Source: a virus. Taken from it: a DNA stretch of 64,000 nucleotides. A program made the translations under genes and the position numbers. Location of the stretch: the IMG/VR virus record IMGVR_UViG_3300042389_001478, positions 64,001-128,000 of that record; one strand, given 5' to 3'. This document shows positions 1 to 42,945 of this stretch, piece by piece. The notes beneath the pieces were generated by a model, which saw only the letters and a list, made by a program, of their open reading frames with translations, had not been told where the DNA came from and did no database searches. Numbering within the stretch: position 1 is the stretch's first letter; each line of letters starts with the position of its first letter.

Positions 1-2
1 TT

Positions 3-491: not shown

Positions 492-521
492 TAATTACTC
501 TTTGTTAAAGTATTTACACTT

Positions 522-562
522 GAGCACCATGTTGCTATTACGCAGCATGGTGTTCTTTTTTT
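522..562 (+). terminator. Rho-independent terminator/attenuator just before the TMP gene
   Basis: 14-bp stem GAGCACCATGTTGC (522-535) / GCAGCATGGTGTTC (542-555) with two G-U pairs, 6-nt loop TATTAC, followed by T7 (556-562). Confidence 0.85.
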
Positions 563-579
563 GAGAACGAGGATAGAAT

Positions 580-3500
580 ATGGCAAAAGGATTTAATTTA
601 ACAGCGGAAATTAATTTACGAGGACCATCTAATATTAGATCGGTTGTTGCCGATATTAAAAGACAGGTAGGGTCTGTTAGTGTTGATGTCAGTCCAACGC
701 TCAATAGGGCTTCTGTTAGAACTATTGCTAATGATATTAGGCGTCAGATAGGAAATTTATCAGCAGAAATTAATGTAAGAGCTAATGCTGGCTCAATTAG
801 AAACTTATCAAGAGATATTCGACAGAGACTGGGAACATTAACTGCTGATGTTCAAGTCAGAGCAGATGCCTCGTCAATTAGAAGATCTGTTGCTAATATA
901 AGATCTCAATTTAGGAATATTAGCACCAATGTCGCAGTATCTGCATCGCCATCATCTATTAGACAAGCATCGTCAGCAATTAGGAGACAGCTTGGAAATA
1001 TTAATGCAAATGTCAGGGTTAATGTTTCCGCAGGATCAGTAAGACAAGCAGCAGCCAATATTCGTAGACAACTAGGCTCTATTAACACCACAGTTAACGT
1101 TGGAATCAATGCAGCGTCATTACGAGGCATTGGGGCATATACAGCAAATCTTACAAGATTAAATGCAACTTTAGCTCAAACTACAATTACTGCTACTAAT
1201 GCTGCCGGAGCAATTGCAACTTTAACCGCGGCTATGGGCGCTGCTGGACGAGTAAATCTTGGTCAAATCAATGTTAATCTTGGTAATGCTGGTAATGCTG
1301 CTAGAAATACTGCTAATAATATTCAGTTAGCTGGTAATGAAATTGAAAACTTCGGTCGTCAAGCGGGCTTGGCTATAAGGCGTTTTGCTGCTTTTAGTGT
1401 TGTTACGGGTGTGGTCTTTGGTATTACTAATGCTTTTAAGAATGGCGTTAGTGCTTTTATTGAATATGATCAGCAGCTTACCAGAATTAGCCAAGTTACC
1501 GGAGATGCCAAAGAAAGTCTTGGTAAAATTAATAGTACAATTAGTGAGCTCTCAACAAGCTTAGGTGTTTCATCTAAAGAATTAGCAGCAACATCAGTAA
1601 CGTTAGCTCAGGCAGGTTTAACAGCACGAGACACCGAGACTGCATTAAAGGCATTGGCCTTAAGTGCATTGGCTCCGTCTTTCGATGACATGAATCAGAC
1701 GGTAGAAGGCTCTATCGCATTAATGAGACAGTTCGGCATTTCCAGCAAAGAACTAGAAGGATCATTAGGATCAATCAACGCTGTTGCTGCAAAGTTCGCT
1801 GTCGAAGCTAGCGATATTATTACTGCCATTCAACGTACCGGTGGTGTGTTTGCTGCTGCTGGTAAAGGAGTTAGTGAAGGCACTAATGCTTTAAATGAGT
1901 TCATTGCTGTATTCACTAGTATTAGAGCAACAACTCGTGAAAGCGCAGAAACCATTGCTACTGGCTTAAGAACAATTTTTACAAGAATTCAGAGAGCCGA
2001 TACTATCGAGGCCCTCAAAGAGTTCGGCGTTACATTAACAGACTTAGAGGGTAAGTTCGTTGGACCATATATTGCTGTTCAAAGATTAAGTGAAGGATTA
2101 TCAAAACTGGATCCTAGAGATTTGAGCTTCTCTAGAATTGTGGAAGAGCTTGGTGGATTCCGACAGATTGGCAAGGTTCTACCACTTATTCAACAGTTCG
2201 CCACCGCACAAGACGCTTTGAGGGTTGCCCAGCAAGGACAAGGATCATTATCGGCCGACGCAGCCAAAGGACAAATGGCATTAGCAATTCAAATAGCAAA
2301 AGTTAGAGAAGAATTTTTAGCATTAATTAGAAGTGTTGGAAATACTGATAGTTTTCAAAATATGGTTAAGGTTGGACTAGACTTGGCCAGTGCCTTAATA
2401 AAGGTAGCAGATGCTGCTAAAGGATTAATTCCATTAGTTGGATTATTTGCGGCGTTCAGGGGAGCTCAAGCTATTACTCAATTTGCTGGTGGTTTTGGAA
2501 GAGGTTTTAGAGGAGCACCAACACAAAGAGCCTCAGAAGGTGGCCCTATTAGACACTTTGCTTCTGGAGGCTATGTTCCTGGTTTTGGTAACGGAGACAC
2601 TGTTTCTGCAAAATTAACTCCTGGCGAGTTTGTTATGAGCAAACCAGCTGTACGGTCTATTGGAGTTGGTAATCTTAGTAGAATGAATAAAGGCGATAGA
2701 GCTAGCAAATTTGATAAGGGTGGTCCAGTAACAGTATCCGCCTTATTAACTAGATCTGGAGGACCGTCAATCAGAAATGCTATTAATACTACTAATTTAG
2801 AACCAGATGATACAGTATCGATAAATATTGTTCCTAAACAAGTACCACTAAACCAGACCGACTTTTTAAATATATGGTTACGAGGTAATTCTTCTGCTAA
2901 AAAAGGAACAGGAAAATTCAAAAATTATGCTGGAATTAATGTTAGTCAAGAGAATAGAGATAGATTAAAAAATTTAGCAGGAAAAAATACAAAACAGCAA
3001 CAAGAAATTAAACGTGGTTATGGGGCCGGTATTTCTGAACAAGTGAGTATGCTACAAAGCGCGGAAGGAAGATGGGGGTTAGCATATGAAGAATTTTTGA
3101 TTAATAAACTTCGAGCTAATTGGACCAAAGCTAGTTCTAAAAACAACTACCCAGTTGATCTTGTTCAAAAACTAACAAATAATTCTATAAAGCGTATTGG
3201 AGAGGTTAAATTTCGCACGACACCTACTGAAGATATAGATCTTATTAGTAAGTTATTAAGATATCGAATAGAAAGAGGATCTATTAACAGATACTTTAGA
3301 GAAAATGAAGAAATTCCCAAAGACTTGGATAAAAATATAGGTTCGTTAGATTATTTTTGGGCTGGAAACTATAAAAAACAATTCTATAAGTTTATAGAAG
3401 AGAGACAAAAAATACAGGCTCCTGGTTTTGTTCGTGCGGCAGCTGGTGGACAAATACAAAGATTCCCTAGGGGCGGAAATGTTCAAAAACTAGCTAATGT

Positions 3501-6500
3501 TGGAGTAACCAAGGAAAAGAAACAGACTAATATAAATGAAACTGCTGCACAAGCTCTTCTCGAACAAAATGCAGGTAAATCTCCTGTTATTAGAAGAATA
3601 TTAAGTAAACCAAAAGCTGGTAGAGATTTTGCACAAATACTTAAAAAACAAGGAGTGACTATACCACCATTTCCAAAATTTGTGGGATCTGGAATGGCTA
3701 ACGCGGTTTTTGATATCGGAAATAAGAAAATGTTAAAAGTTTCTCTCACGGGCTTTGGCGATAATATGATGGCAGGAAATTTCTTTGGAGAGAATGTTGC
3801 TGAAAAAATGGGTATGACAGGTAATTATCAATTACCGATGGGTGTTCCTGGAGTAGCTGGATATTCATCTCATATTGATGCGGGAGTCTTGTCGTCTGCT
3901 ATTCAAGACAAAGCTGTTATGAAAATAAAAGGAAGAAGTAAAAATAAAGATGCTAACGAGCTAATCAAGCGATTGCGTAAACAAGAAGGACTTACAGGGA
4001 TTGATCTTCATAACGACAATATAGGATATAGATATAATCCCAAAACTAAAAAACAAGAACCAGCAATTATAGATGGTTTAGTAGTTCATGATGATAAATT
4101 ACCTCCTGGATTTGATTTTTCGAATCGTTTTAAAATTGGTGGAGAAGTACAGAGATTCCCTATTGGTGGAGAAGTTAGAAGAACCAAAAAAGAACGATAC
4201 AAAAAAATATCAGTAGCAGATGCAGAAAAGCTATCAGCTTCTCAGATTATAACCGGCCTTACTACAGGACAATCCGCTCCAGCTAGAGTAGGGGGTATGG
4301 ATGTTGTAACTATGAGAAAGATTCTCGGCCAACGCAATAGAACACCAGATGATCAACGCAAGAGAGATGAAATTCTAAATGCTTATACTAGAAGAATAAA
4401 TGGAGAAGTAGATCAACGTCTTGGAGTTACTAAGCAGAGACAAACAGCAGGATTACTATTTGGTATTGCTGGTTTGTACGGGTCTCCATTTGCCCCAACC
4501 GATATGGTTGTTGGAGATAAAGGAGAACTTACAAAACCCACAACCGTTCAGGTAATGGGTGGTGTTCCTCGTAAAAAATTAATGGATAGAGCTAATCTAA
4601 GTATTAATGACCTAGACATTTATGGTAAAGATTTTAAAAAGTCTGTTAAAAAAGGAGCTAAAAGATTATTAGTATCAGATATTCTTAGCCAACTAGGTTT
4701 AGGCAAAGCTCTTTATGCTGACTTTGATCGAACATTAGTGTTTGGTGCTGATGATCTTCCAGATATCCAGTCTTTTAATGACAAGAGAAAAGTGGGCAGG
4801 CAATTATTATCAAAAAAAGCTAGACTGAGCGTTCTTGGTCAAAAATTAAGAGATTTATTAGTAGCTAAGCCACAGCTCACACCATCTGTAAAAATATTAA
4901 CAGCAAGACCACGCTCTACACTTGGTCTTTTACAAGCTTTTCTTAGACGACAAAATCTTAATATACCTTCTTCTCAATTTACTGGGGTCGGTGGTAATAA
5001 TTTAAACGAAGCAGCAATAGCAAAATTAAAAGCTGCAGAATTACCTTCTGGATCAGTTTTAGTTGATGATAATGCAAAAAATATAAGAGCAGCAGAGCTA
5101 AAATCTAAAGCACTAAAAGCTCAAGGCGAAGCTGGTATTACAACATTTAGATATAAGAGCGCTAGGAGCCCACTAGATAAGCCGGGCGAAGATACTGCTG
5201 CTGGTCTTGCGTTCCAAGAATCATTAAGAGGACTTCTTTCAGAAAAAAGAGCAGTGGCCGCATTTGCTGAAACAGGAGGGAAGAGCATAGATTTCCCGCT
5301 AGGATTAGGAAGACGAGCAGCATTATTCGGACTAAAACCAAATATACCCACAGATGCTAAAAGAACATTAACTGGTCCATCAACAGCAAAAGAGAATATT
5401 ACTAATTATTTGAAAGCTAGATCATATTCTGCTGGCGGAGATATTCAAAAGTTTCCACAAGGAGGAACACCATCGCCGGGTGGACATTCCTCAAATATTG
5501 TACCAGCATTAGTTAGCACTGGAGAAGCTTACTTTCCACCAGAAGAAGCAAAAAATATAGGCTTAGACAAATTAAGAAAAATGAATCAAGCAGATCGTAA
5601 TGGCATGAAATCCTTTGCTCGGGGTGGTGTTAGTGTTTTCAGAGGTCCGGGATCAGGAACTAGTGATAGCATAGGACCAATAGGTTTGCCAGTAGGAAGC
5701 TTTATCGTTCGAGCAGCTGCAACAAAAGCTTTGGGTCTTAGTTCGGGTGGATCTGTTGGTAATGTACAAAAATTTGCCGCAGGAGGAGCTGCTCAAAGAT
5801 TATTTGTTGGAGGATTATTAAATCCACCACCAGCAGCTAGGCCAGATCTTGGTGGTATGAATGATTCTGAAGCTCGAAGAGTTGTTGGAGTAGTTAATAG
5901 CGTTAATCAGCAACTAGGACAATTAGCAGGAGTATTAGAAGAGCTTGGTGTTGCATCAGGAGATACTGCAAGGTTAATGCAAAGAGGAAGTCAGGCTACT
6001 TATGCTCAAGCTATTCAAGCGACAGAAGCTGATATTAGACGAGCCAGAATAGCAGGAGCATCAGCTCAACAAATAGCAGCTGCAGAAAGTGTGCTACGGG
6101 ATATTAGACAACAAGCTGATAGAGATATCAGAGCAAGAAGAGCATCTGTAGATACTCCGGGCGGAGCTAGAGCTTCCTTGGGTAGTTTAGGTGGACAAGA
6201 TTTACAGAGAATAGATTCTAGAGCCGATCAGCTACGTCAACAAATGATGGAAACAGAAAGAAATCGACTACAGAACCAAACTGTAACTCGCGGAGGAAGA
6301 ACAACAGCAAGATATTCTAATGAACAAGTCGAAGAAAGACTACAAAGACGAGCAGGAAGATTTAATAGACAATCCTACGAACAAGCAACTACTCAAGTTA
6401 CCGGCGGACGAGTCGATCTTGGTGCTGTTGGTTTAACTGGAGATGATGCTCAAAGATATATCCAACAAAGTATGAGAGACCGTAATACTTTAGCTCAGAT

Positions 6501-15500: not shown

Positions 15501-18500
15501 TGCAGAAAAATCAGGATCGATTAGAGCAACAGAATTAAATACTAGACTACAACAACAAATAGCTAATAATACAAAAAATACAGCCGATACTGTTCCAACT
15601 ATAGCAAAAATTACTAGTGAAACAGCAAATAAGCAAATACCGACATTATCTAATAAAACATCATCATTAGAACAAAATAATGCTAAGGCTTTTTCCAACA
15701 TAAATACAAAAGCTACAGATATTAATAAAATAACTTCAACTATTCCACAATTTGACAAAACAGCAAATGAAAAATTAGATGAATTATTAAGAAGAACTGA
15801 AGGGTTGCCAGAGACAGTTGCACAAATTGTTACTTTGATTATTGGGGATATACAACAGAGACAGCCTGGAGGTAATTTTGCAGGATTTGGGTTGAATCAA
15901 GGCCCTAATGCAATACAAGCAATAAATGATGCTATTAGAAATAGGTTTGATAATATTCTTAATGCTGCCGCTTTACAGATGGGCAGGGGCTTTAGTAGTG
16001 GAGGTATGGTCTATGCTTCAAATGGAATGATGATTCCTTATGAACCTAGAGGTACTGATACTGTTCCGGCGATGCTAACTCCGGGTGAGTTTGTGGTGAA
16101 CAGAGTTGCTACCCAAGCCAATTTACCTTTATTACAAGCTATTAATAAGAGTAAAGGTGGGAATATCAAAAAGCTTGCTGAGGGTGGAGTAGTTTATGCT
16201 GCTACTGGCGGAACAATGCCAACTAAACCAGACGGTTCTGCTGATACTAATTTTGATGCTCGCAAAGCTCAACGAAAAGCATCTTTAGAGAGACAGATTC
16301 GAACACAGGAAGAAAAAGAATTTAAGAAATTAGGTATCTTATACAATGATACCACAGACAAAGAAGATATCATACAAGCTCTTAAAAAACAAACTCAGCC
16401 TTATCCTTATCCTTTAAATATTGATTATTATCTAAGACAATTTAGTAGGGATAAAGCATTTGACATAGACCTAAAAAGATTTCCAAGAATTAGCGAAGCG
16501 GCAAAATCAATCTTAGCCAAACAAGAACAACCAAAAGCTAATCCTTTTGATATGGGTCAGCAACCAGCAGCAACTCCACAATCACTCTCAAGAGGTGGAG
16601 TAGTTTATGCTTCTGGTGGCGGAGAGATGACAAAAATTCCAGAGCCACCAATAGCTATGCCATTCGGATTTGCTCCACAAAAGGGATTTGCTGTTCCTTT
16701 GGATAAAACTAAGGCCATACAAGCACATCAACAATCAGAAAAATACCCTGATCCTTTTACTCCAGAAGCTGATAGGGCCTGGAGACAATTTGACTTGAGT
16801 CCAGTAGAAAGTATGGCGGATGATGCTCATGAATTTTTACAAGAAAAATTAGGAGGAAACAAACAAATTCCCCTTAATGGTCCACCCATGCCATTTGGTG
16901 TCGGTCCTAGAGCTAGGCATATGGATAACACTGTTGCTGGACAACTTCAAGGATTGTATTATTCGTTAATACCTGATAATACCAAAGGTGGTCAGGGTTT
17001 AGAAAATTATTTAGACCAATATAAAAATCATTTTGCTCCAAACGCACCATATGGGGCTCAGCCGATCTTACCAAATAAAGATTCGTTGATGCCTCAAATG
17101 AAAGCTAAGGGTGGAGTAGTTTATGCTCAAGAAGGATTTGATCCATCAAGACCATTAAATCCTATGATGAATCGTCAAGGAAAGGGTTCAGCTTCCACAT
17201 TAACCTCATCTCCAATTAGTAATTTTAATAATGAGAAGTTAGCTGAAGAAGGTAAAGCTTTTATGTACGGAGCTGCTAAGTCCGTACTTCCAGGTTTAGC
17301 TGGTTTGGGTGCTGGACTTTTAGGACTACCCACCACGGGTCCTGGTGGATTTGCTATTGGCTTAGGAGCAGGGACCGCAGTATATCAAGCTCAAGAAAAT
17401 TATTTGAATGCTTTTGCTCCAGAAACAAATAGACAGATGAAAGATATCACCGAGGAGCACTGGCAGGCTTCATTATTGGGATCTATAGCTAGTGGTTTTG
17501 GTGTTGATAAGGCGGGTCGTAAGCTACTCTCTCCTTTTATGAAAAATACTCTCAGAATGCCCGCCACACTTCCTAATAATAATGCTTCTGTAAGACCAGA
17601 TATTAAGAGTGCTAGTCAAGAAGCTATGGAGGAATTTTCTTTAAGAAGTAGACCAGCAGCTAGCGCCCCATTAGATGTACCAAAAGCTGATAAAGCTTTA
17701 CCGCTTCTTCGTAGTCTAGAAGAAAAGGGTGTTATAAAAACTACTCAATCATCATCAACATCTAAATTTAACAGTGATAACAGACGAGACCTATATCAGA
17801 TTGATCAAATTTTATATCACGGCACAGGACATACTATAGATGATATAGATCCATCCAAAGGCGGAGGTATATTAGGCGGTGGTTTCTATACTGGATTTGA
17901 AGGTCACGAAGGAATCGCTGCAAGATTTGCAGCAATGGGTAAAGCAAATAAGCATGTGTATCCAGTAAGAGTCAGTGGTGGTATAGGTGATTTTCCTGAG
18001 GCTACAGAAACTCTTGGCGGTAACTCTAAAATTTTATCAGTCATAGAAAAATTATTTACTGAACAGAACTTATCTAGACAAACTCGTCAGTTCTCAGGCA
18101 AATGGGGGAAAACAGGTCCTATTTATGACAACGTAGATTTAAATCTGAAAGACATGACATTCAAAGACGTTGTTGATTTGCTTAAGAATAGATATTCTGA
18201 AACCATAAAGAAAACTCTAGAGCAAGAAAATGGTATTTCTTTATCAAAAATATCGCCTCAAGAAATTGCTACAAGAGCAGATAAATTAGGTGAAGAACAG
18301 GTAAGACAACTATTGGTTAAAGCTGGTATACCAGGAGCCAAAGATACAACAGGAAAATTATCGGGTACTGGCGAACCTATGGTCTCCATATATGATCAAA
18401 GCAGGCTAAGCAAAGAAGGAAAACCTTTTGTTCCAAATAGTTTGAAACCCCAGATGAAAGCCAATGGTGGTGTAATTTATGCTCAAGATGGTATGAGAAT

Positions 18501-21279
18501 CCCGTTTAATTTAAATGATATTGCTGATAAAAATCCAGCAAAAGTGGGATACTCAACATCAGCAGAAGAACGATATATGGAAAGATGGAAGAAAACACAT
18601 ACCGACTTACTAGCAGACCCGTCAGAAGGTCCTGGTATGTTGGGTGCTCCGTTTCATGAAAGATTTTCAGCTGGCTTAAATATGCTTGCTGATATTGGTT
18701 CAGCAAAAATGGCTGGAGCAAAAGCTACAGGAGCAAGAGGTCAAAAATTTGCTAGTGTGCCAAGATCAGGCAGATCCATGAGGAAACCACCGACCTCTAT
18801 AGTGAAACCAAGTGCTCCTTCTGTAGGAGATCTTAAAGCTCTGCAATATAGTCAAGAAAATATACCAAATTTATTAGGAGATGGAGAGAGACCATTATTT
18901 AGTAAAGATTTTCCAAAAACCGTTAAACCAAAAGATATTGAAGCAAAATTAGCCCAAGATAGAACTGAAATAGAAAGTATAGCAAAATTACTCTCTGAAA
19001 GACTAGGAAGACCGGTTGATCCAGTGGAAGCTAAGGATATGTTAGTTAAAAGAATGACTGATATGATGATTGAAGCTAAGTCTGGCGAAGATAATATGAA
19101 AGGTAGAACTGTTGATAGTAAAACATTTATAATATCTTCTTCACAAGGAAGAACTAATCGAGCTTTTGTAGAAGCGTCTCCTAAAGCATCATTATTACGC
19201 AAAATAGCCTCAAAACTATCTTTTGGTAAAATAGATAGATTATCTCCAAAACAACAATTAGATAGAGACGAACTATTTGCCATACAACGAATACAGAGTT
19301 ATATGTATGATCAGTTACATCCTGAAAGAATGGGTGGTTTAATTATTCCTTCTCGTAAACTATCTTTTGCTGAAGCTTATGATGAAATAGATTCATTACA
19401 ACCAGGAAAATATGGTTATTTCAAAGGGCTAACTGAACCCGGAGGCAAAGCATTAAAAAATCTTCTATCCAGCGGAAGAATAGATAAAGAAACATTGATG
19501 ACTCAACGTAAACAAGTATCAGATAAGTTAATATCTGAAGGTAAATTAGATCCACAAGATCTACCAGAAGCAAGAATGGCGGAAGACCCCACAAAATCTC
19601 AAATGATAATGCAGAGAGTAAACAGAAATTCTGATATGATAATTAGATATCAAGGAAATGATGTCAGATTAAATCCAGATATTTTAAAATTAGCAGATAA
19701 AGGTGTCTACCAGTCACCCGTAACCACAAATGATCCACAACAACAAATATACCCTACATCTCCATTAGATTTTTATCAGAAATTTATGGCTCCACAGAAT
19801 AAATCATCTGGTGGTGTAATTTATGCTTCAACAGGAACATTAGTAAATTATCAGCCTCGTGGCACCGACACAGTACCCGCAATGCTTACGCCCGGTGAGT
19901 TTGTTGTAAACAGAGCCTCTACTCAAAAACACCTTCCACTATTACAATCTATTAATAGTGGGAACTATGAAAATGGCGGAATAGTATCATACTATCGAAG
20001 AGGTGGTCGTATTACTGCAGCAGAACTAGCATCAAATAGAAGAGAATATTTAGATCGCAAAAAAGCAGAGAAAAAGCAAAGAGATGATGATAAAAAAGCT
20101 AGAGAAGATAATTTTGCAGCAGCACGACAACAACAGATTGAAGACCGTAGAGCTAGATCTACAAGTGGCATCTCTGTGCAAACCAGGGGCGGGTCCTATG
20201 CTCGATCTGCAATGAGTTCTAGTCAAGCACAACCAAACCAACCACAACAAACAGCACAGAGCACCATAGCACAAGCTATTATCAATGTGGCTCAAGCAGC
20301 TATAAATATTGCAAATGCTACTACTAGTTCTAGCTCCTCTAATAATAATCAAACCGGCACTCCGTCTTATATGACTAGTAGTATTAATGGACCAAGAACT
20401 CAACGAACTCAGGATTTCTTTGAAGCTAGAAGAATAAATAGAAACAGCAGAGAACAAGAAGAGAATGACAGAACATTATATAGAAGAAGAAATCGCAGGC
20501 CATCAGACACAACAGCTTATAGTAATGCTTTAGCTAGTAGAAATACTCCCGTGGCTGCTAATAATCAAAATTCCCCAGCACAAAATAGCATATTCGGTAA
20601 CTTGCTACAAGCCATACAAAGCATGTTTGGATCGGCCCAAACAGCAACGAGAGGTGCACAGAATCAACAAACTGGAACACCAAGATATCTAACAAGCTCT
20701 ATCAATACTCCCGGCGTTCAGCGAACACAAGAATTCTTTGAGATGAGAAGAATTAACCAAGAAGCTCAACAGGCTGAAAGAGACAGAAGAAATCAAAGAG
20801 CTGCAGTGGCACAAGCGGCCAATAGTCCAAATGTTCCATCTGGCCAAAATCCAGCACAAAATAATAACATATGGACAGTATTAAATAATAATGCTCTCCA
20901 ATTTAGTAATGCTTTAAATACAGCTACCACCGCTTTAAACACAGCCTCCGCCGCGATACAGCAATATAATCAACAATTGGCTGGTGGTGTATCTAATAAA
21001 GGAAACCCTGATAAAACCAATCTTGATGGAATTAGCCTATTTACAAGCACATTCCAATCATTTATTGATCAATTGAAAAATATTAATCCGGTAATAAATA
21101 TGAGAGGAAATCATACAGTAACAGTAAATTTCGGTTCTGGTGCAGATGTTTTTGCAAGAATGGAAGGAAGAGTTAAGGAGTTTGTTATTGATCAAATTAA
21201 TGCCGGATTAAATAATGTAAATACTACACTAAGAGATAGCACCGAAGGCTCTATTGATAATGTTCGAAATTTAGCTTAA
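580..21279 (+). CDS. Giant (6,899 aa) tail tape measure protein with embedded effector/enzyme cassettes
   Basis: Uninterrupted ORF with GAGG RBS. TP901-type tape-measure core (AFIEYDQQLTRISQVTG...INAVAAKFAVEASDIITAIQRTGG), hydrophobic segments, long Ala/Gln/Arg-rich helical stretches, TMP-type GTDTVPAMLTPGEFVVN motifs, and position ahead of tail/baseplate genes. Confidence 0.92.
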   Translation: MAKGFNLTAEINLRGPSNIRSVVADIKRQVGSVSVDVSPTLNRASVRTIANDIRRQIGNLSAEINVRANAGSIRNLSRDIRQRLGTLTADVQVRADASSIRRSVANIRSQFRNISTNVAVSASPSSIRQASSAIRRQLGNINANVRVNVSAGSVRQAAANIRRQLGSINTTVNVGINAASLRGIGAYTANLTRLNATLAQTTITATNAAGAIATLTAAMGAAGRVNLGQINVNLGNAGNAARNTANNIQLAGNEIENFGRQAGLAIRRFAAFSVVTGVVFGITNAFKNGVSAFIEYDQQLTRISQVTGDAKESLGKINSTISELSTSLGVSSKELAATSVTLAQAGLTARDTETALKALALSALAPSFDDMNQTVEGSIALMRQFGISSKELEGSLGSINAVAAKFAVEASDIITAIQRTGGVFAAAGKGVSEGTNALNEFIAVFTSIRATTRESAETIATGLRTIFTRIQRADTIEALKEFGVTLTDLEGKFVGPYIAVQRLSEGLSKLDPRDLSFSRIVEELGGFRQIGKVLPLIQQFATAQDALRVAQQGQGSLSADAAKGQMALAIQIAKVREEFLALIRSVGNTDSFQNMVKVGLDLASALIKVADAAKGLIPLVGLFAAFRGAQAITQFAGGFGRGFRGAPTQRASEGGPIRHFASGGYVPGFGNGDTVSAKLTPGEFVMSKPAVRSIGVGNLSRMNKGDRASKFDKGGPVTVSALLTRSGGPSIRNAINTTNLEPDDTVSINIVPKQVPLNQTDFLNIWLRGNSSAKKGTGKFKNYAGINVSQENRDRLKNLAGKNTKQQQEIKRGYGAGISEQVSMLQSAEGRWGLAYEEFLINKLRANWTKASSKNNYPVDLVQKLTNNSIKRIGEVKFRTTPTEDIDLISKLLRYRIERGSINRYFRENEEIPKDLDKNIGSLDYFWAGNYKKQFYKFIEERQKIQAPGFVRAAAGGQIQRFPRGGNVQKLANVGVTKEKKQTNINETAAQALLEQNAGKSPVIRRILSKPKAGRDFAQILKKQGVTIPPFPKFVGSGMANAVFDIGNKKMLKVSLTGFGDNMMAGNFFGENVAEKMGMTGNYQLPMGVPGVAGYSSHIDAGVLSSAIQDKAVMKIKGRSKNKDANELIKRLRKQEGLTGIDLHNDNIGYRYNPKTKKQEPAIIDGLVVHDDKLPPGFDFSNRFKIGGEVQRFPIGGEVRRTKKERYKKISVADAEKLSASQIITGLTTGQSAPARVGGMDVVTMRKILGQRNRTPDDQRKRDEILNAYTRRINGEVDQRLGVTKQRQTAGLLFGIAGLYGSPFAPTDMVVGDKGELTKPTTVQVMGGVPRKKLMDRANLSINDLDIYGKDFKKSVKKGAKRLLVSDILSQLGLGKALYADFDRTLVFGADDLPDIQSFNDKRKVGRQLLSKKARLSVLGQKLRDLLVAKPQLTPSVKILTARPRSTLGLLQAFLRRQNLNIPSSQFTGVGGNNLNEAAIAKLKAAELPSGSVLVDDNAKNIRAAELKSKALKAQGEAGITTFRYKSARSPLDKPGEDTAAGLAFQESLRGLLSEKRAVAAFAETGGKSIDFPLGLGRRAALFGLKPNIPTDAKRTLTGPSTAKENITNYLKARSYSAGGDIQKFPQGGTPSPGGHSSNIVPALVSTGEAYFPPEEAKNIGLDKLRKMNQADRNGMKSFARGGVSVFRGPGSGTSDSIGPIGLPVGSFIVRAAATKALGLSSGGSVGNVQKFAAGGAAQRLFVGGLLNPPPAARPDLGGMNDSEARRVVGVVNSVNQQLGQLAGVLEELGVASGDTARLMQRGSQATYAQAIQATEADIRRARIAGASAQQIAAAESVLRDIRQQADRDIRARRASVDTPGGARASLGSLGGQDLQRIDSRADQLRQQMMETERNRLQNQTVTRGGRTTARYSNEQVEERLQRRAGRFNRQSYEQATTQVTGGRVDLGAVGLTGDDAQRYIQQSMRDRNTLAQMDRAYIPRRAAQIRQQLEAERGVGATARERAALARQALRMAEQEARDRANTARAAARAAGAAGPGGGPESGMARSMGMAFGLQMVGSLLAQQINPESSSSNAQISAGLQGGTNMLATGTMIGSGVMEMFPAMTRLLGPITILTTVALAAGQALIDARNAAIEFEKKLADKRVQDAMERVGQGFDKLSKNIKDIKIQDDITNNLIEASRNVRKSVEADKTTAKAFWANITDVFTSNTSSNLAEAAQNVYNSKPAAGRTDADRNALAAVTINTQAAAASRSKILEKEGVSAYLSTTSMGQFLSGAGSQSSSRAEERRSSLSLGMIPETAREDSKKYVEVAQSMQRIIEDKLRSGLSVRELLTAPKHEFEQIARTMAMADQATHANILAIQQDTNLTTAEKEAKIKNIATLYAEDKIRKSAKSVDTEKASKNFEKNINNMSRSLERMFQNMDQAIERTSFSLRQMSQDMDLISASLGGQAKTGDTSLKSMNILQNPRAYGGLETNAARDQASSFFTGERNLVKGLLSVGDNLETSIMSSINKTLTDNPAASNEQIGINIEKQVTKQIAKLQLPPDVGNKLGEQVKTALDEMRKRGDENLNFDDLMEKIPGLSKVLESGKRAQESALKALEHWQSSLNSYSEKINQLIDLQIDTNERLRRSSELVIRGNMEVSRALGKDVSVSSVRSARNVGIAQQTGGLTDADAIAKNIMSLEGQRRSLESSANSAGNRGLAGANDFVKFKSGLLDTNVALRENIAALKSLAENGDVASAALGKIQEAQQKQASKVGFIEKLVTSTPEEVNSLERAMARLQNNINGQLNTINNSVGAQKAYNDAIAQGATNAEAMSAAQVAFAGERKETLGALNDLLPFLSNNQQGNNIKANVLESMARESGVGINPMMQEVINSLRNPQADPQTQAAMQQYQQAISEQARANTLLAQLNSTLANDIATKSAAALSQALTGASIKFQSSQLDDIAKNVRSISLRGGDQPVPAAGKANGGMIYAAAGTMVNFQPKGTDTVPAMLTPGEFVVNRAATSRNLPLLQSINSGGYSKGGSVNYYSSGGYVSSVFKSEYLDSKNLENSEKQYIDPEDKIIKDIISGDDKPFMIRSGWKNFTRLQSPANQYHSAQFKKTYVGRVGGYFGFGLDETNDKIPFETSGKLVPGSAPIIDINSIDGEYVYKNTPPPNLWPAGNRELGYLLSDRKFNTKNIAKNDLSKYRDIINGLISVVPPGRVWGTDPSSFEFSSPDDLSGGQSGFPYNPNLSSAKPVGLILSRGATDIGQQATESTDGIQKIFNNSRAFTGQSEEASDRAGNTTRIYGDIQGTVSAGKLTNAAKLAQRGFINDVPTDNDTFKWITETKKISELRDTQKENLSLLKNTTTDIFGNKINWLKNTEKNNKLISLQQKLQKIYEGGSLIEDLDVSERELIDNTQLRLDDASGKFSLLSKQLEPQLAKRVAELSSRPIDQQLPKDKENARIATLTRIGGAAGWADGDPFPINFSENGLTKPTVSFPWIANIEPEFFLQNIKEQQEQQAKDRASGKDYGFNISSLGLQPYAAKLPAPLDKVSFNYKAAYTKYSGRLFDLRQKELDNTRPLNDAFIIDPKHDDALNIFKNANFPDKSFFTGFPGPYQPQDLAKRISVKDPQSILDYMQALRNNDPNADALAGKINGVSLALGPALLKVMNDKPLYLPDDLYYGIDNTFQNLDISPFVVASAKDAAGQLGRLAKEKSSQINTPGSKTQSISEADLGPTVQRIAQASLGIFGRRPGIPSGYLYSQFGRALSNISDPIKAKNTASGISGVFSNLVKQIHGMAPRNSREFAALRDSNILATGASAVFNKLASGSTNYIKSFLGGGSSIENLFRSLGSGSFFNEMGSQQFSEDFTKQLGADLKGSKLAKIGADGSIDLTDMNEQDVPKNYQGLVDLAINPYHEFGNRSVRQGIFQKLMTDIPNFRANHNVTDPKTGTILEKRQTQLPLFGPAALKMIMTNLNNLSQWYGGNGAWAGQDYLNENDPATTPNERAEFLASNFDGALYTTATEAHRQLGGLANFGDIPNREWLMARGQAKMPDMKPVVKLATGGMVYASNGQYVNFQPRGTDTVPAMLTPGEFVVNRSATQQNLPLLRAINNGADAYSMGGVVYAAGGFDPSRMAQGAYPSQSTSPKPSMWSRMFGARNPGAFRPRGMFPTFGGAVGHMENGLHKAFVRTSGWAGRQVGDVGRAFGNIGHAPIRPTAILNQLTQWQAAQQGAMFPASTSGAAYQRMQQNVLKQLAQYSSAATNYNASNTLLARAGRGATSLATKAVGGTAAFNSGINILTEGSSALYGFGNAALGGRNTYVDSRREQAAQTNNTILGGAATGFMSPITTMAQMGFTVAELNETRRRASKGESLNSEGRKISVSNIANRQYSGDERHLSGLTAVEATYIRQIINLEKALAKEKVGTKRYDQLQQNLNDAKSRNVTEKTRGMLWGTTKTTSRKAGLSSGDDVLDKAIDQHREYEVRLEAQRVAQAAAEKAEEARLKAQQQQAEAQNRTRAAVTVVSNAGQAAYNFGVSMFNKFKEDRKNAINADRSKRTAAASQYLDKPAVPDLIKDSQTFRDERQAAIDEVRRLDGVYQQESQLNKNRGDSEAELKRLKDSYDKEREAALAAVAKVDSKIIDRNKEAEKLSPDERQAAWKSYNDNQAKTAKDEALAQARYQSRVAKTQLKKQADGQLAIAEITRVPRPTKDMNPESFFRWSENARKTLNRKFKLSGNDEKDMAILSAAGLSPEIAKEVIQPISKENSSLLLEMMSTSGKYSKQELGLLQLSGDQIEQLTRASSGMGGSATAQMTLDERNKVLKKQRGLAVKTQKQLSRIEKQIEAAERLGPEGRIRRQSAIQQQLLRQGLVSASQDGPANQARLEQLGMNKERVGFIFQQQGNQQGAPANGMSNGGVVYAAGGTLIPYSPRGTDTVPAMLTPGEFVVNAKATSQNLPLLQSINKSSGGVIYRAEGGGSDAFSNRQPTSSAEKSGSIRATELNTRLQQQIANNTKNTADTVPTIAKITSETANKQIPTLSNKTSSLEQNNAKAFSNINTKATDINKITSTIPQFDKTANEKLDELLRRTEGLPETVAQIVTLIIGDIQQRQPGGNFAGFGLNQGPNAIQAINDAIRNRFDNILNAAALQMGRGFSSGGMVYASNGMMIPYEPRGTDTVPAMLTPGEFVVNRVATQANLPLLQAINKSKGGNIKKLAEGGVVYAATGGTMPTKPDGSADTNFDARKAQRKASLERQIRTQEEKEFKKLGILYNDTTDKEDIIQALKKQTQPYPYPLNIDYYLRQFSRDKAFDIDLKRFPRISEAAKSILAKQEQPKANPFDMGQQPAATPQSLSRGGVVYASGGGEMTKIPEPPIAMPFGFAPQKGFAVPLDKTKAIQAHQQSEKYPDPFTPEADRAWRQFDLSPVESMADDAHEFLQEKLGGNKQIPLNGPPMPFGVGPRARHMDNTVAGQLQGLYYSLIPDNTKGGQGLENYLDQYKNHFAPNAPYGAQPILPNKDSLMPQMKAKGGVVYAQEGFDPSRPLNPMMNRQGKGSASTLTSSPISNFNNEKLAEEGKAFMYGAAKSVLPGLAGLGAGLLGLPTTGPGGFAIGLGAGTAVYQAQENYLNAFAPETNRQMKDITEEHWQASLLGSIASGFGVDKAGRKLLSPFMKNTLRMPATLPNNNASVRPDIKSASQEAMEEFSLRSRPAASAPLDVPKADKALPLLRSLEEKGVIKTTQSSSTSKFNSDNRRDLYQIDQILYHGTGHTIDDIDPSKGGGILGGGFYTGFEGHEGIAARFAAMGKANKHVYPVRVSGGIGDFPEATETLGGNSKILSVIEKLFTEQNLSRQTRQFSGKWGKTGPIYDNVDLNLKDMTFKDVVDLLKNRYSETIKKTLEQENGISLSKISPQEIATRADKLGEEQVRQLLVKAGIPGAKDTTGKLSGTGEPMVSIYDQSRLSKEGKPFVPNSLKPQMKANGGVIYAQDGMRIPFNLNDIADKNPAKVGYSTSAEERYMERWKKTHTDLLADPSEGPGMLGAPFHERFSAGLNMLADIGSAKMAGAKATGARGQKFASVPRSGRSMRKPPTSIVKPSAPSVGDLKALQYSQENIPNLLGDGERPLFSKDFPKTVKPKDIEAKLAQDRTEIESIAKLLSERLGRPVDPVEAKDMLVKRMTDMMIEAKSGEDNMKGRTVDSKTFIISSSQGRTNRAFVEASPKASLLRKIASKLSFGKIDRLSPKQQLDRDELFAIQRIQSYMYDQLHPERMGGLIIPSRKLSFAEAYDEIDSLQPGKYGYFKGLTEPGGKALKNLLSSGRIDKETLMTQRKQVSDKLISEGKLDPQDLPEARMAEDPTKSQMIMQRVNRNSDMIIRYQGNDVRLNPDILKLADKGVYQSPVTTNDPQQQIYPTSPLDFYQKFMAPQNKSSGGVIYASTGTLVNYQPRGTDTVPAMLTPGEFVVNRASTQKHLPLLQSINSGNYENGGIVSYYRRGGRITAAELASNRREYLDRKKAEKKQRDDDKKAREDNFAAARQQQIEDRRARSTSGISVQTRGGSYARSAMSSSQAQPNQPQQTAQSTIAQAIINVAQAAINIANATTSSSSSNNNQTGTPSYMTSSINGPRTQRTQDFFEARRINRNSREQEENDRTLYRRRNRRPSDTTAYSNALASRNTPVAANNQNSPAQNSIFGNLLQAIQSMFGSAQTATRGAQNQQTGTPRYLTSSINTPGVQRTQEFFEMRRINQEAQQAERDRRNQRAAVAQAANSPNVPSGQNPAQNNNIWTVLNNNALQFSNALNTATTALNTASAAIQQYNQQLAGGVSNKGNPDKTNLDGISLFTSTFQSFIDQLKNINPVINMRGNHTVTVNFGSGADVFARMEGRVKEFVIDQINAGLNNVNTTLRDSTEGSIDNVRNLA
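631..1116 (+). repeat. Six tandem 27-aa (81-bp) Arg-rich repeats at the TMP N-terminus
   Basis: Units start at 631, 712, 793, 874, 955, 1036; consensus S[IV]R..a..IR.QlG.i.a.V.V.a... Confidence 0.9.
1450..2300 (+). other. Phage tail tape-measure core domain (TP901/PhageMin_Tail-like)
   Basis: F..YD..L..I..VTG...I.ELS..LGVSS.ELA.....LAQAG...A...L.ALA pattern typical of this domain. Confidence 0.85.
3073..3380 (+). other. PD-(D/E)xK nuclease-like domain inside TMP
   Basis: WGLAYEEFL (helix Glu) ... NYPVD (Asp at 3157) ... IGEVKF (E 3202, K 3208). Confidence 0.65.
3676..4090 (+). other. Protein-kinase-like domain inside TMP
   Basis: Gly-rich loop VGSGMANAVF (3682-), beta3 Lys in MLKV (3736), catalytic loop DLHNDN (4003-4020), Mg-binding IIDG (Asp at 4072). 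Confidence 0.75.
4708..5130 (+). other. HAD-superfamily phosphatase domain inside TMP
   Basis: Motif I LYADFDRTL (DxDxT, 4720-4734), motif II ILTAR (4900), candidate motif III Lys in AKLKAA, motif IV VLVDDNAKNI (5065-5070). Confidence 0.85.
5200..5420 (+). other. Second, compact restriction-endonuclease-fold-like domain inside TMP
   Basis: GLAFQE ... SIDFP ... PTDAKRT matches an E...D...(D/E)xK spacing, with Gln at the usual Glu position. Confidence 0.4.
9472..9627 (+). repeat. TMP linker repeat copy 1 (GG..YA..G...GTDTVPAMLTPGEFVVN...LPLL..IN)
   Basis: KANGGMIYAAAGTMVNFQPKGTDTVPAMLTPGEFVVNRAATSRNLPLLQSIN. Confidence 0.95.
12715..12870 (+). repeat. TMP linker repeat copy 2
   Basis: LATGGMVYASNGQYVNFQPRGTDTVPAMLTPGEFVVNRSATQQNLPLLRAIN. 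Confidence 0.95.
15268..15423 (+). repeat. TMP linker repeat copy 3
   Basis: MSNGGVVYAAGGTLIPYSPRGTDTVPAMLTPGEFVVNAKATSQNLPLLQSIN. Confidence 0.95.
15991..16146 (+). repeat. TMP linker repeat copy 4
   Basis: FSSGGMVYASNGMMIPYEPRGTDTVPAMLTPGEFVVNRVATQANLPLLQAIN. Confidence 0.95.
17809..18410 (+). other. ADP-ribosyltransferase-like domain (His-type, polyvalent-protein ART-like) inside TMP
   Basis: ILYHGT (His at 17818) ... IDPSKGGGILGGGFYTG ... IAARFA ... HVYPVRV, then a helical insert, then AGIPGAKD ... GEPMVSIYDQSRL. Confidence 0.75.
19801..19956 (+). repeat. TMP linker repeat copy 5
   Basis: KSSGGVIYASTGTLVNYQPRGTDTVPAMLTPGEFVVNRASTQKHLPLLQSIN. Confidence 0.95.
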
Positions 21280-42652: not shown

Positions 42653-42945
42653 CCATTATTTGGTAACCAATTGTTTTCTTCATCCTTACGTCTCGGGAAG
42701 AGCGTTCCGCCCTTTTTATGCTGGCCGAAGGCCAACACCGCGCCACAATCATTACATCTTAATTCATAGTAGTCGTTACCATCGACATTTCTTACTACAA
42801 ATTTCAAATTAGATTTACCACATAAGCCACACTTTTCTTCAGAAAAAATCTCCTGAATTAAGGCTAACTCCTTAAAGATTTCTTTTTGTCCAGCGCCTTC
42901 TAGCTCAAACGACAATCTTTCATTAGCCTTATATGTTGCTTTCAT
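42613..42945 (-). CDS. Hypothetical zinc-ribbon protein, 110 aa
   Basis: CGLCG...RCNDCG pairs; fits operon tiling. Confidence 0.75.
   Translation of the reverse strand: MKATYKANERLSFELEGAGQKEIFKELALIQEIFSEEKCGLCGKSNLKFVVRNVDGNDYYELRCNDCGAVLAFGQHKKGGTLFPRRKDEENNWLPNNGWHKWQKNQVEKS

Follow-up and report, generated by a model that had tools for sequence, protein, structure and literature searches.

How a phage gets through its opening minutes in a defended cell, when none of its own genes is yet expressed, is an open question. [quoted passage not shown] The fusion is gp96 of Thermus phage P23-45 (also present in P74-26, G20c and TSP4), a TMP of 5,002 aa to which a virion RNA polymerase is fused (PMC10770324). 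Giant chains of another kind are the polyvalent proteins, in which unrelated catalytic domains, including H-Y-D ADP-ribosyltransferases (ARTs), C-lobe-less kinases and nucleases, are joined in one polypeptide whose entry together with the DNA has been predicted; the same study proposes that their cassettes vary by recombination, and it never mentions tape measure proteins (0 occurrences; PMC5512222). Motif 3 of TM4 gp17 is an enzymatic motif embedded in a ruler, dispensable for viability and counting toward tail length (PMC1796659). The lambda TMP, gpH, matures to gpH* and gpHC, the latter released from a Gly-rich region of gpH (PMC12617516).

Here we describe a TMP, P0001, in which enzyme-like modules are set between repeated joints. 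The tail ruler appears to serve a whole, widely distributed clade of large freshwater phages as a re-loadable enzyme rack, with cassettes swapped between distant phages at standard joints. The source is an uncultured lake phage with a 192-kb genome; the window analyzed is a stretch of 64,000 nucleotides of it.

A single tape measure gene with an alternating architecture

P0001 is a real protein and the sole TMP of its genome. One 6,899-aa ORF, stop-free over 20.7 kb, encodes it (Table 1). Its PF10145 (PhageMin_Tail) match at aa 320-512 scores 88.4 bits (E 7.8e-25; cut-off 33.2), a PF10145 search of all 192 kb returned this protein as the single match (95.3 bits), and nine PHROG TMP families match as well. 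Upstream of the gene are tail-fibre and baseplate-like genes; its immediate neighbours carry no annotation.

An earlier note on this DNA, made from the sequence alone, had described one ORF of this length with a TMP scaffold in three stretches, and both the open frame with its TMP matches and the three stretches hold. The stretch at ~1.25-2.5 kb of the window corresponds to aa 224-640 and includes the PF10145 and PHROG TMP matches; that at ~5.8-9.45 kb corresponds to aa 1740-2957, a helix-former-rich block kept in 36 of the 58 related loci; and the last ~140 aa show weak but recognisable conservation in 10 closed orthologues, at their C-termini. In 16 of 25 related records this C-terminal module served to locate where the gene ends. 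The conserved frame of P0001 comprises aa 1-640, aa 1730-2960 and the last 140 residues, and alternates with cassettes. Within the central block M4, which is 77% identical to that of the related TMP P0026, the helix-former fraction is 0.50-0.59 over most of aa 1800-2900 (0.45-0.59 per 150-aa bin).

None of the 6,899 residues of P0001 is a cysteine. Long ORFs elsewhere in the genome contain 700 in ~45,700 aa (1.5%), and the TMP family as a whole contains 24 in 257,050 aa. The absence is compatible with a chain that needs to pass unfolded through a narrow channel.

Table 1 Features of the P0001 gene and protein, with positions in the window
Feature	Residues (aa)	Position	Strand	Key residues or evidence
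Whole gene, tape measure protein P0001		580..21279	+	ORF; genome's only PF10145 match
N-terminal tandem repeats, ~40-aa units rich in S-x-IR..Q.G	16-184	625..1131	+	self-BLAST, 36-39% identity between units
Hydrophobic segment	262-288	1363..1443	+	Kyte-Doolittle window 19, mean at least 1.4
TMP core, PF10145 PhageMin_Tail	320-512	1537..2115	+	E 7.8e-25; PHROG TMP families
Hydrophobic segment	602-626	2383-2457	+	Kyte-Doolittle window 19, mean at least 1.4
Joint motif copy 1, degenerate	645-715	2512..2724	+	motif search, self-BLAST; PHROG TMP families match
M1, PD-(D/E)xK nuclease-like	740-955	2797..3444	+	E837, P858-V859-D860, E875-V876-K877
Short joint GGQIQRFPRGG	956-966	3445..3477	+	kept at ends of M1 and M2 homologues
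M2, truncated protein-kinase-like	1010-1186	3607..4137	+	G1036-S-G1038, K1053, E1075, Q1109, D1142..N1147, D1165
M3a: conserved helix, Gly-rich hydrophobic stretch GLLFGIAGLYG, beta-hairpins	1198-1372	4171..4695	+	conservation, model
HAD phosphatase domain	1373-1529	4696..5166	+	D1381-x-D1383-x-T1385, T1441, K1484, D1496-D1497
M3 C-terminal sub-module: invariant IDFP..GLG, PTD-x-KRT; ends with joint GGDIQKFPQGG	1530-1629	5167..5466	+	conservation
M4, central ruler block, helix-former-rich	1730-2960	5767..9459	+	17-36 of 58 loci; composition
Hydrophobic segment inside M4	2104-2130	6889-6969	+	Kyte-Doolittle window 19, mean at least 1.4
Joint motif copy P2	2961-3057	9460..9750	+	motif and self-comparison
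M5, aromatic-rich	3058-4041	9751..12702	+	NPYxEF and WYGGxGxWxGQD conserved in M5c
Joint motif copy P3	4042-4119	12703..12936	+	motif and self-comparison
M6, mostly helix-former- and charge-rich	4120-4896	12937..15267	+	composition
Joint motif copy P4	4897-4994	15268..15561	+	motif and self-comparison
Joint motif copy P5	5134-5214	15979..16221	+	motif and self-comparison
M8 and M9 cassettes	5215-5338; 5339-5510	16222..17109	+	sequence comparison
M10a, with Gly-zipper-like hydrophobic stretch	5511-5740	17110..17799	+	present without M10b in P0004, P0012, P0026
M10b, ADP-ribosyltransferase-like	5741-5962	17800..18465	+	H5747 (YHGTG), Y5770 (GGGFYTG), D5939 (IYD)
M11	5963-6405	18466..19794	+	84% identical to P0023 aa 4712-5237
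Joint motif copy P6	6406-6500	19795..20079	+	motif and self-comparison
M12a, Q/N/S/T-rich	6501-6759	20080..20856	+	internal duplication aa 6601-6676 and 6707-6768
Conserved C-terminal module, common to family members	last 140	20857..21276	+	sequence conservation

Joints between the cassettes

The cassettes are bounded by GG-containing linkers, as had been claimed, and these are of two kinds. Fourteen are short, of the GGxIQRFPxGG or GG[VM][VI]YA types (in broader form, GGx[IV]Q[KR]FxxGG / GG[VM][VI]YA); two more like the one listed after M1 lie at aa 1187-1197 and aa 1619-1629. The other kind is a motif of ~60 aa centred on GTDTVPAMLTPGEFVVN and present in 6-7 copies. This motif was found in all 58 related loci, and its number correlates with TMP length (r = 0.82, 62 proteins). 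Several PHROG TMP families match it near their C-termini. Its profile, searched against the PDB, matched gp16 of mycobacteriophage Douge (8zdo_S) at E 1.2e-4, with two copies, and weakly matched one copy in lambda gpH (8iyk_H) at aa 747-784 (E 0.13).

Enzyme-like cassettes

The HAD cassette, M3, occurs in 31 of the 58 loci. HAD motifs I (DxDxT), II (S/T), III (K) and IV (DD) are invariant or at least 90% conserved in 16-20 sequences of 35-45% identity, and the domain has a Rossmannoid HAD fold. By structural modelling, the cassette is confirmed as a bona fide phosphatase fold with intact catalytic motifs, of a type resembling polynucleotide kinase-phosphatases. The identity to the T4 Pnkp 3'-phosphatase domain and Pnkp1 (PDB 5uj0, 1ltq, 4xrp) is just 9-16%. 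Unlike Pnkp, P0001 has no P-loop kinase domain attached to it, and GSGKS-type P-loop cassettes are found in some relatives. Profile methods did not recognise the domain: a direct PF13419 search gave no HAD match at E <= 10, Pfam scans of the slice containing it gave no match, and a PDB profile search gave sub-threshold HAD matches only (E 0.085). The closest fold matches include class B and C acid phosphatases, which are periplasmic enzymes.

M1 is probably a nuclease, judged by its E..PVD..ExK elements, which stand in PD-(D/E)xK order and are kept in 9 of 9 homologous segments. It is a rare cassette (3 of 58 loci; 8 of 67 representatives), and its PDB profile search returned the FAU-1 RNase only (E 0.06).

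M2 is a probable protein kinase that may lack the C-lobe. The spacing of its motifs is kinase-like, from a Gly-rich loop through the beta3 Lys, the alphaC Glu and a D-x4-N catalytic loop to a Mg-binding Asp, and the chain ends ~20-50 aa past D1165. These residues are invariant in two alignments of M2 as well as among its 10 homologous segments. The K, D-x4-N and ID[GA] elements are conserved in 10 of 10 segments and all have an xSG or GxG loop, homologues of M2 and M10b being few and the conservation statistics thin. The Kinase-PolyVal family is described as lacking the C-lobe and having a conserved Gln, and at sequence level the M2 signature, in which Q1109 is invariant, would agree with that description (PMC5512222). 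M2 was found in 6 of 58 loci, with one alone covering most of its length. As a language-model lead, its nearest named clusters in the ESM Atlas are T7-kinase, Kinase-PolyVal or Pkinase (0.90-0.92). A PDB profile search gave a weak match to APH(2'') (E 0.14), a direct PF18762 search at E <= 10 found no match in this genome or five related genomes, and hhalign of M2 with T7 gp0.7 aligned the catalytic loop at a probability of ~1%, which is not significant.

M10b is probably an H-Y-D ART. A companion note had named a Glu as the acidic residue; the invariant residue is instead Asp5939, and together with H5747 and Y5770 it is invariant among four sequences of ~30% identity, which would agree with the published H-Y-D description (PMC5512222). 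In the ART-PolyVal / Tox-ART-HYD2 group the His, Tyr and Asp belong to strands 1, 2 and 5, the positions predicted for the three M10b residues if it is such an enzyme. Homologues occupy other positions in P0003 and P0029. A language-model lead points the same way: the PF18760 ART-PolyVal family set is common to 24 of the 30 nearest named ESM Atlas clusters (0.91), and in the top rows 17-54% of cluster members carry it. Direct search for PF18760 at E <= 10 gave no match in this genome or five related genomes, and the AF2 model of M10b is of low confidence (pLDDT 44.6).

No P0001 cassette was recognised in model searches with Pfam, NCBIfam and PHROG, and an HMM scan of 11 full-length relatives yielded PF10145 plus two marginal matches and nothing else. 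A search of P0001 for HExxH found none, and no protease is recognisable in it; HExxH modules occur in some relatives, namely in P0060 and as an Aminopep match in 1 of the 11 scanned. Of the four enzyme families named in the earlier note, all four motif sets are present and conserved and the HAD fold is confirmed. The nuclease, kinase and ART labels are less well supported, drawing on invariant catalytic residues in few homologues and on language-model leads.

Cassette content across the family

The P0001 family consists of widespread giant mosaic TMPs of 2,435-7,872 aa from uncultured phages of ~150-240 kb. Closed or open frames of 2,435-7,813 aa were found in the 58 related IMG/VR loci. An exhaustive phmmer search with aa 740-1620 against 1.84 billion representatives gave 67 matches, nearly all in giant proteins of 1.9-7.9 kaa and with no ordinary cellular enzyme among them. 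By tblastn against GenBank phages, the matches were to Bacillus, Clostridium, Rhodococcus and Psychrobacillus phages and 'Bacteriophage sp.', with SPbeta-like TMPs at the top.

The modules occupy differing positions from TMP to TMP. Identity between P0026 and P0001 is 91% across aa 1-704 and 77% across aa 1614-5214, and in P0026 other content stands where P0001 has M1-M2, M8 and M10b+M11. M10 is 88% identical to its counterpart in P0003, the cores of the two TMPs being 53% identical; the corresponding values are 84% and 60% for M11 and P0023, and 82% and 55% for M3 and both P0002 and P0003. Segments matching M8 at 66-70% identity occur in P0010, in P0012 and, twice, in P0013. The ends of shared blocks coincide with joints. 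It is at the joints that cassettes are exchanged. The orthologue comparison proposed by the earlier note has thus found variable cassette content around a constant frame.

Discussion

We favour, with modest confidence, a reading of P0001 as a TMP frame bearing exchangeable enzyme cassettes that are delivered into the host, with the joints as recombination sites. The frame, made up of the N-terminal TMP core with its hydrophobic segments, the central helical block and the C-terminal module, would do the work of ruler and tip anchor. Self-contained cassettes sit between the frame pieces, each fenced by a conserved joint that is either a short GG peptide or the ~60-aa module related to a lambda gpH segment within gpHC. 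The cassettes would ride in the tail, enter the host envelope or cytoplasm before phage gene expression and act there on host nucleic acids and proteins, and recombination at the joints re-equips the TMP. Since TMPs occupy the tail lumen and exit before the DNA, the cassettes most likely enter the host at infection, and the tail probably brings ready-made enzymes with it. Catalytic activity, delivery, targets, joint cleavage, tail length and stowage of the cassettes in the tail are points that we infer.

An artefact, in which separate genes were fused by mis-assembly across repeated joints, would have its opportunity in joints that recur 6-14 times and in the junctions at aa ~985 and ~5963, which are spanned by no independent sequence compared. 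It is nevertheless extremely improbable. The frame is unbroken over 20.7 kb, the joint repeats have diverged in DNA (64-71% nt identity; motif copies share no exact match longer than 15 nt), and independent assemblies cover every other tested module junction. P0026 is colinear with P0001 over aa 1614-5214 in a single alignment, and the C-terminal module match lies inside a long frame of 3,968-7,813 aa in 16 of 25 related records, a count in which 15 frames are listed and three matches contain one stop. The P0001 ORF is not a repeat-driven mis-assembly. If the protein is real, it could still be a true polyprotein, as the earlier note supposed: the ~60-aa joints would be cleavage modules, the chain would be cut at assembly or ejection, the freed cassettes would be proteins of their own, and the helical frame (~2,000 aa, ~300 nm) alone would measure the tail. 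We think this rather unlikely. It has in its favour that the joint motif stands at nearly every cassette boundary, that it aligns with a part of lambda gpH inside gpHC (~aa 690-853), that cleaved forms of both T5 pb2 and lambda gpH are what mature particles contain (PMC12617516), and that some relatives carry HExxH modules. Yet P0001 itself lacks a protease motif, the lambda match is weak, the presumed cleavage site in gpH is upstream of the motif, with neither its exact position nor the catalyst known (PMC12617516), and an embedded enzymatic motif does count toward tail length in TM4 (PMC1796659).

That last point would suit a very long ruler, in which all residues count, the tail reaches ~1 µm and the cassettes either serve as filler or work on the envelope alone, during penetration, and not as cytoplasmic effectors. 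The length rule predicts a tail of ~1,035 nm if all 6,899 residues count and ~300 nm for the frame alone. The earlier note had inferred from a length of ~1 µm that the cargo is probably looped out or released by proteolysis, which is questionable, as a 5,002-aa TMP with a nearly 1-µm tail exists in Thermus phages P74-26 and P23-45 (PMC10034513, PMC10770324) and the TM4 motif counts (PMC1796659), tails being ~20 nm shorter when 114 aa are removed from the TM4 TMP. The continuous range of TMP lengths in the family, from 2.4 to 7.9 kaa, and the periplasmic acid phosphatases among the HAD fold neighbours also fit. We nonetheless place such a ruler below the polyprotein in likelihood. In homologues of only 30-45% identity, the catalytic residues of all four unrelated enzyme types stay unchanged, and filler would not keep them. 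Recent cassette exchange among distant TMPs suggests selection on content beyond length, and nuclease, kinase and ART chemistry requires ATP, NAD or nucleic acid, all of them cytoplasmic.

Two points speak against delivery of cassettes on a ruler frame: folded domains of 20-25 kDa should not fit three- or six-fold in a tail lumen ~4 nm wide, and some of the closest HAD fold matches are periplasmic. In a more speculative version, which we consider doubtful, the gpHC-like joints would be cleavage modules triggered at assembly or ejection, and the polyprotein would free ten or more exchangeable effectors (phosphatase, kinase, ART, nuclease and unknown folds) into the host ahead of the DNA, making the tail comparable to the effector cartridge of a secretion system; instead of this, or as well, family members of up to 7,872 aa would build tails exceeding the ~1 µm record of P74-26.

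If delivery is true, these TMPs would be a natural modular protein-delivery chassis and would offer an extensive set of early effectors still to be explored, most cassettes matching no known family. They would also let one study how a lumen of a few nanometres holds folded domains and lets them through. For tail-length control, either tails longer than 1 µm exist or the ruler rule breaks. The absence of cysteine offers a simple, testable signature of such cargo.

Among known systems, P23-45 gp96 and the polyvalent proteins are the nearest precedents. Like P0001, gp96 is a giant TMP; it carries a working enzyme that is thought to enter the host via the tail, and it also has transmembrane and metallopeptidase domains and serves a tail of nearly 1 µm (PMC10034513). 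It differs in having one N-terminal enzyme and no array, repeated joints or cassette swapping have not been reported for it, and tblastn against GenBank phages detected no similarity between it and P0001. The earlier statement that such enzymes usually come as separate proteins has to be qualified, as a TMP-fused virion RNA polymerase was already known (PMC10770324). Like the polyvalent proteins, P0001 combines unrelated enzyme modules, a HAD domain and three defined by motifs, here in a tail gene. Polyvalent proteins are head- or conjugation-delivered and typically have a zincin peptidase for self-processing, whereas in P0001 the carrier is a TMP without HExxH. T4 Alt, a virion ART, and T7 gp0.7, an early kinase, modify host proteins at the start of infection and are functional analogies for M10b and M2. 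Each is a protein in its own right: Alt, an R-S-E ART, travels in the head, and the gene for gp0.7 is expressed once the phage has entered. Lambda gpH and Douge gp16 share with P0001 the PGEFV-type joint motif, the TMP role and a C-terminal fragment contacting the tail tip; gpH has one joint copy and no enzyme cassettes, in contrast to the 6-7 copies that form cassette boundaries in P0001. In TM4 gp17 and T5 pb2, which has a C-terminal peptidase, an enzymatic module within the ruler acts at infection. Those are single muralytic modules working on peptidoglycan, whereas the phosphatase, kinase, ART and nuclease types of P0001 have no known envelope substrate. The Sle1-type, TMP-related effectors found in contractile injection systems of actinobacteria (PMC13277306, PMC11126660) resemble P0001 in having a TMP-derived carrier with an exchangeable domain, which is loaded into a tail-like tube and ejected; they are cellular injection-system cargo with one functional domain, whereas P0001 is a phage ruler with a dozen cassettes.

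Gene, genome setting and predicted tail type

The 6,899-aa tape measure protein (TMP) has a constant frame, standard joints and exchangeable cassettes, with one verified enzyme fold and three further conserved active-site sets. The single giant TMP gene described in the earlier note is confirmed by an unbroken frame of 6,899 codons and by PF10145 (PhageMin_Tail, E 7.8e-25), a family that matches nothing else in the genome. Nine PHROG families annotated as tail length tape measure protein match aa 76-1118, the standard tape measure core being the N-terminal third of the protein's first kilobase-scale block, and three hydrophobic segments are consistent with TMP identity. The core finds only distant SPbeta-type TMPs by tblastn against GenBank phages, and pieces of the frame gave no matches in PDB profile searches. 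The parent IMG/VR phage record is 192,497 bp long and is rated complete by CheckV; its bases 64,001-128,000 form the window.

Tail-fibre and baseplate-like genes lie upstream of the TMP gene. A 4,221-aa ORF containing 29 cysteines belongs to the same virion gene block and is followed by ORFs of 384, 693, 1,056 and 311 aa with tail-fibre or baseplate-wedge PHROG matches. The immediate neighbours of the TMP gene are without any family match; the four large ORFs downstream presumably encode distal tail, hub and fibre proteins. The GC skew changes sign near 41.6 kb, and this position (~41.6 kb) is a divergent transcription unit boundary, immediately after the tail genes. No sheath gene was found in the genome (PF04984 search), so the predicted tail is likely to be long and non-contractile. 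The sub-threshold match of PF17482 (Phage_sheath_1C; 13.7 bits, E 0.008 in this genome) to the TMP C-terminal module is probably due to chance. A PDB search with the candidate tube protein returned no relatives.

Features of the TMP and its surroundings
Feature	TMP residues (aa)	Window position (nt)	Strand	Remark
4,221-aa ORF		before the window: L001 1-6768 (genome ~38,100-50,768)	+	upstream
TMP	1-6899	580-21279	+	
Tandem repeats	16-184			N-terminal
Hydrophobic segments	262-288, 602-626, 2104-2130			
PF10145	320-512			
Joint module copies, degenerate	~645-715, ~1630-1730			self-comparison
Joint module copies	2961-3057, 4042-4119, 4897-4994, 5134-5214, 6406-6500			self-comparison
M1	740-955			candidate nuclease
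M2	1010-1186			candidate kinase
M3a	1198-1372	4171-4695	+	precedes HAD domain
HAD domain	1373-1529			phosphatase
Sub-module 3' of HAD	1530-1629	5167-5466	+	
M10b	5741-5962			candidate ADP-ribosyltransferase
Low-complexity stretch				Q/N/S/T-rich, precedes C-terminal module
Internal duplication	6601-6676 / 6707-6768	20380-20883	+	41% identity, within low-complexity stretch
PF17482, sub-threshold		20893-21132	+	C-terminal module
1,450-aa ORF		21296-25648	+	directly 3' of TMP; no PHROG/Pfam match
529-aa ORF		25674-27263	+	no PHROG/Pfam match
1,858-aa ORF		27280-32856	+	no PHROG/Pfam match
2,760-aa ORF		32859-41141	+	no PHROG/Pfam match
~30 genes		41612-63937	-	fill remainder of window

Joints

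Self-comparison of the TMP revealed N-terminal tandem repeats and 6-7 copies of a ~60-aa joint module centred on GTDTVPAMLTPGEFVVN. Shorter Gly-Gly joints number 14 in all: those at aa 956, 1187 and 1619 are of the GGxIQRFPxGG type and the others of the GG[VM][VI]YA type. Composition differs from block to block between joints. The two kinds of joint bear out the suggestion that the cassettes are bounded by GG linkers. The joint module copies are 67-80% identical as protein and 64-71% identical as DNA, with a longest exact DNA match of 15 nt, and because of this divergence they cannot have misled the assembler.

A profile of seven joint module copies matched mycobacteriophage Douge gp16 (8zdo_S, E 1.2e-4, two copies) and lambda gpH (8iyk_H, aa 747-784, E 0.13) in the PDB, and several PHROG TMP families match the module near their own C-termini. 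The matching lambda segment falls within gpHC (~14 kDa), the C-terminal fragment that is released from the Gly-rich region (~aa 690-853) once the tail has assembled, by a cleavage of which neither the exact site nor the catalyst has been identified (PMC12617516). The joints may be processing sites. No protease motif was found within the 6,899-aa TMP. A low-complexity stretch with an internal duplication precedes the C-terminal module.

Family and cassette exchange

A search of IMG/VR with the first 673 aa of the TMP recovered 58 loci at 38-86% identity, where the homologous ORF ends at 2,435-3,827 aa or continues beyond the fetched DNA; a search for the C-terminal module in 25 parent records placed the gene end within open frames of 3,968-7,813 aa. 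Single-sequence pattern scans of IMG/VR with M1, M2 and the C-terminus gave no match, and alignment-based scans gave one further locus. When aa 740-1620 were searched exhaustively with phmmer against 1.84 billion representative proteins, there were 67 matches, nearly all of them giants of 1.9-7.9 kaa; the few short proteins resemble contig fragments, and nucleases, kinases and phosphatases of the ordinary cellular kind were absent. The cassettes therefore occur essentially only within giant TMPs.

The earlier note expected orthologues to differ in cassettes around a constant scaffold, and this is what the family displays. The joint module is present at 58/58 loci, the central ruler segment M4c at 36 and the HAD block at 31, M2 at six (with most of M2 covered in one only) and M1 at three. 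A given module occupies differing positions across full-length representatives; M10b, for instance, corresponds to aa 917-1103 in P0003 and aa 829-1019 in P0029. Among full-length relatives the nearest is P0026 (6,675 aa), with 91% identity over aa 1-704 and, in one single alignment, 77% identity over aa 1614-5214; where the 6,899-aa TMP has M1-M2, M8 and M10b plus M11, P0026 has different sequence. Several cassettes are far more alike than the cores of the proteins that carry them: M10 is 88% identical to that of P0003 (cores 53%), M11 84% to that of P0023 (cores 60%) and M3 82% to those of P0002 and P0003 (cores 55%). Such discordant identities bear the signature of recent cassette exchange. 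The ends of the exchanged blocks coincide with joints. Over 62 family members, protein length is correlated with how many joint modules (r = 0.82) and how many short joints (r = 0.78) are present.

Other members carry modules that are absent from the 6,899-aa TMP. The C-terminal half of P0058 has a cassette with R (LYSGLGRG), S-T-S (FLSTST) and E-x-E (EKEF) motifs that resembles R-S-E ADP-ribosyltransferases of the Alt/VIP2 type; P0060 has an HExxH zincin-like module (HELTH); and P0015, P0020 and P0044 have Walker-A P-loop modules (GSGKSSL / GSGKTTL).

HAD phosphatase domain

In an alignment of 20 M3 sequences (aa 1245-1625), D1381-F-D1383-x-T1385, T1441-A-R-P, K1484 and D1496-D1497..N1501 are invariant or nearly so, and together these residues make up the four HAD motifs. 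The AlphaFold2 model built from this alignment has pLDDT 87-96 across model residues 130-280. The top of its Foldseek list against the PDB consists entirely of HAD phosphatases, the Legionella Lem4 HAD domain first (6.9e-5), followed by e(P4), Pnkp1, phosphoserine phosphatase, AphA and T4 Pnkp; matches in BFVD are viral PNKP phosphatase domains. Curated HMMs did not match the domain, PF13419 was not found in the genome, and a PDB profile search with the HAD block gave HAD matches that were all sub-threshold. Residues 1373-1529 are almost certainly a HAD phosphatase domain, divergent but predicted to be catalytically intact, and the modelled shape is nearest to that of nucleic-acid end-healing phosphatases.

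In many family members the HAD domain is preceded by the elements of M3a, a conserved Gly-rich hydrophobic stretch (GLLFGIAGLYGSPF type) together with a pair of beta-hairpins (pLDDT ~80); M3a could be a membrane-active element. The sub-module 3' of the HAD domain (pLDDT 63-81) has invariant IDFP..GLG and PTD-x-KRT, a pattern that resembles another nuclease-type motif in minimal form, D...D-x-K.

Candidate nuclease, kinase and ADP-ribosyltransferase cassettes

In M1, E837 (in AYEE), P858-V-D860 and E875-V-K877 are kept in 9/9 homologous segments in the canonical PD-(D/E)xK order, and M1 is probably a nuclease of this class. Ten M2 segments keep a G-rich loop (GSG, 1036-1038), K1053, E1075, Q1109, D1142-x4-N1147 and D1165, with spacing like that of a protein kinase core, and a protein kinase is the likely identity of M2; since the module stops shortly past D1165, it appears to be without a C-lobe. 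M10b keeps H5747 (YHGTG), Y5770 (GGGFYTG) and D5939 (IYD) in four sequences of ~30% identity, and we somewhat favour an H-Y-D ADP-ribosyltransferase (ART). Published accounts of polyvalent proteins describe an ART whose active site is H-Y-D and a kinase that has a conserved Gln but no C-terminal subdomain (PMC5512222); the patterns of M10b and M2 fit these accounts. In the ESM Atlas, ART-PolyVal clusters are nearest to M10b (24/30 matches, score 0.91), and the clusters nearest to M2 bear Phage_T7_kinase, Kinase-PolyVal or Pkinase (0.90-0.92).

Pfam, PHROGs and NCBIfam recognised no cassette, whether the whole ORF or nine or ten slices of it were scanned. Across 11 full-length relatives, Pfam detected PF10145 and two marginal matches only, and PF18760 and PF18762 had no match in this genome or five related genomes. 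In PDB profile searches, all matches to M1, M2 and M10b were sub-threshold or spurious (designed 'Pizza' repeats, FAU-1, APH(2'') at E 0.14), and hhalign of M2 with T7 gp0.7 aligned the catalytic loop alone, without significance (probability ~1%). No homologues of M2 or M10b were found by tblastn against GenBank phages, nor stand-alone homologues of M10b among proteins of 128-410 aa; the M10b structure prediction, from an alignment of only four sequences, had pLDDT 44.6, too low to be of use. The remaining ~3,500 cassette residues (M5, M6, M7-M9, M10a, M11 and M12a) had no family matches. Of the four enzyme families claimed in the earlier note, the phosphatase thus stands on fold and motifs; the nuclease, kinase and ART have conserved residues but no Pfam match.

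Cysteine depletion

The TMP has no cysteine in 6,899 residues; the genome's other long ORFs have 700 in ~45,700 aa (~1.5%), and 67 family representatives have 24 in 257,050 residues. The adjoining 2,760-aa protein, with 77, makes a sharp contrast. This depletion, which extends to the globular enzyme modules, suits a disulphide-free chain threaded through a narrow channel, a property that would be expected of tail-lumen cargo.

Discussion

TMPs fill the tail lumen, exit first at infection and help to build a trans-envelope channel (PMC12617516), and gp96 of P23-45 illustrates that a TMP is able to bring an active enzyme into the host (PMC10770324). Delivery of the 6,899-aa TMP would bring its cassettes along; the HAD domain and nuclease would act at once on nucleic-acid ends, host or phage, and the kinase and ART on host proteins. 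An arms race may drive the frequent swapping of cassettes.

A tail of ~1 µm had been considered implausible for such a protein, an objection that now looks weak: in P74-26 and P23-45 the TMP has 5,002 aa and the tail is almost 1 µm long (PMC10034513, PMC10770324), and in TM4 the loss of a 114-aa embedded enzyme motif leaves tails ~20 nm shorter (PMC1796659), so that this motif counts towards length. The tail would measure ~1.0 µm if all residues count, or ~0.3 µm if length is set by the frame alone and the cargo is cut off or looped out.

TMP-borne muralytic motifs (PMC1796659), one TMP-RNA polymerase fusion (PMC10770324), polyvalent proteins (PMC5512222) and TMP-related CIS effectors (PMC13277306, PMC11126660) have already been published. 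In the literature we found no paper on TMPs that line up exchangeable, non-muralytic enzyme cassettes in arrays, with repeated gpHC-type joints as their borders. What the 6,899-aa member adds to the known systems is a HAD domain of PNKP type, an ART-like module read as H-Y-D, cassette exchange in quantified form and a cysteine-free signature.
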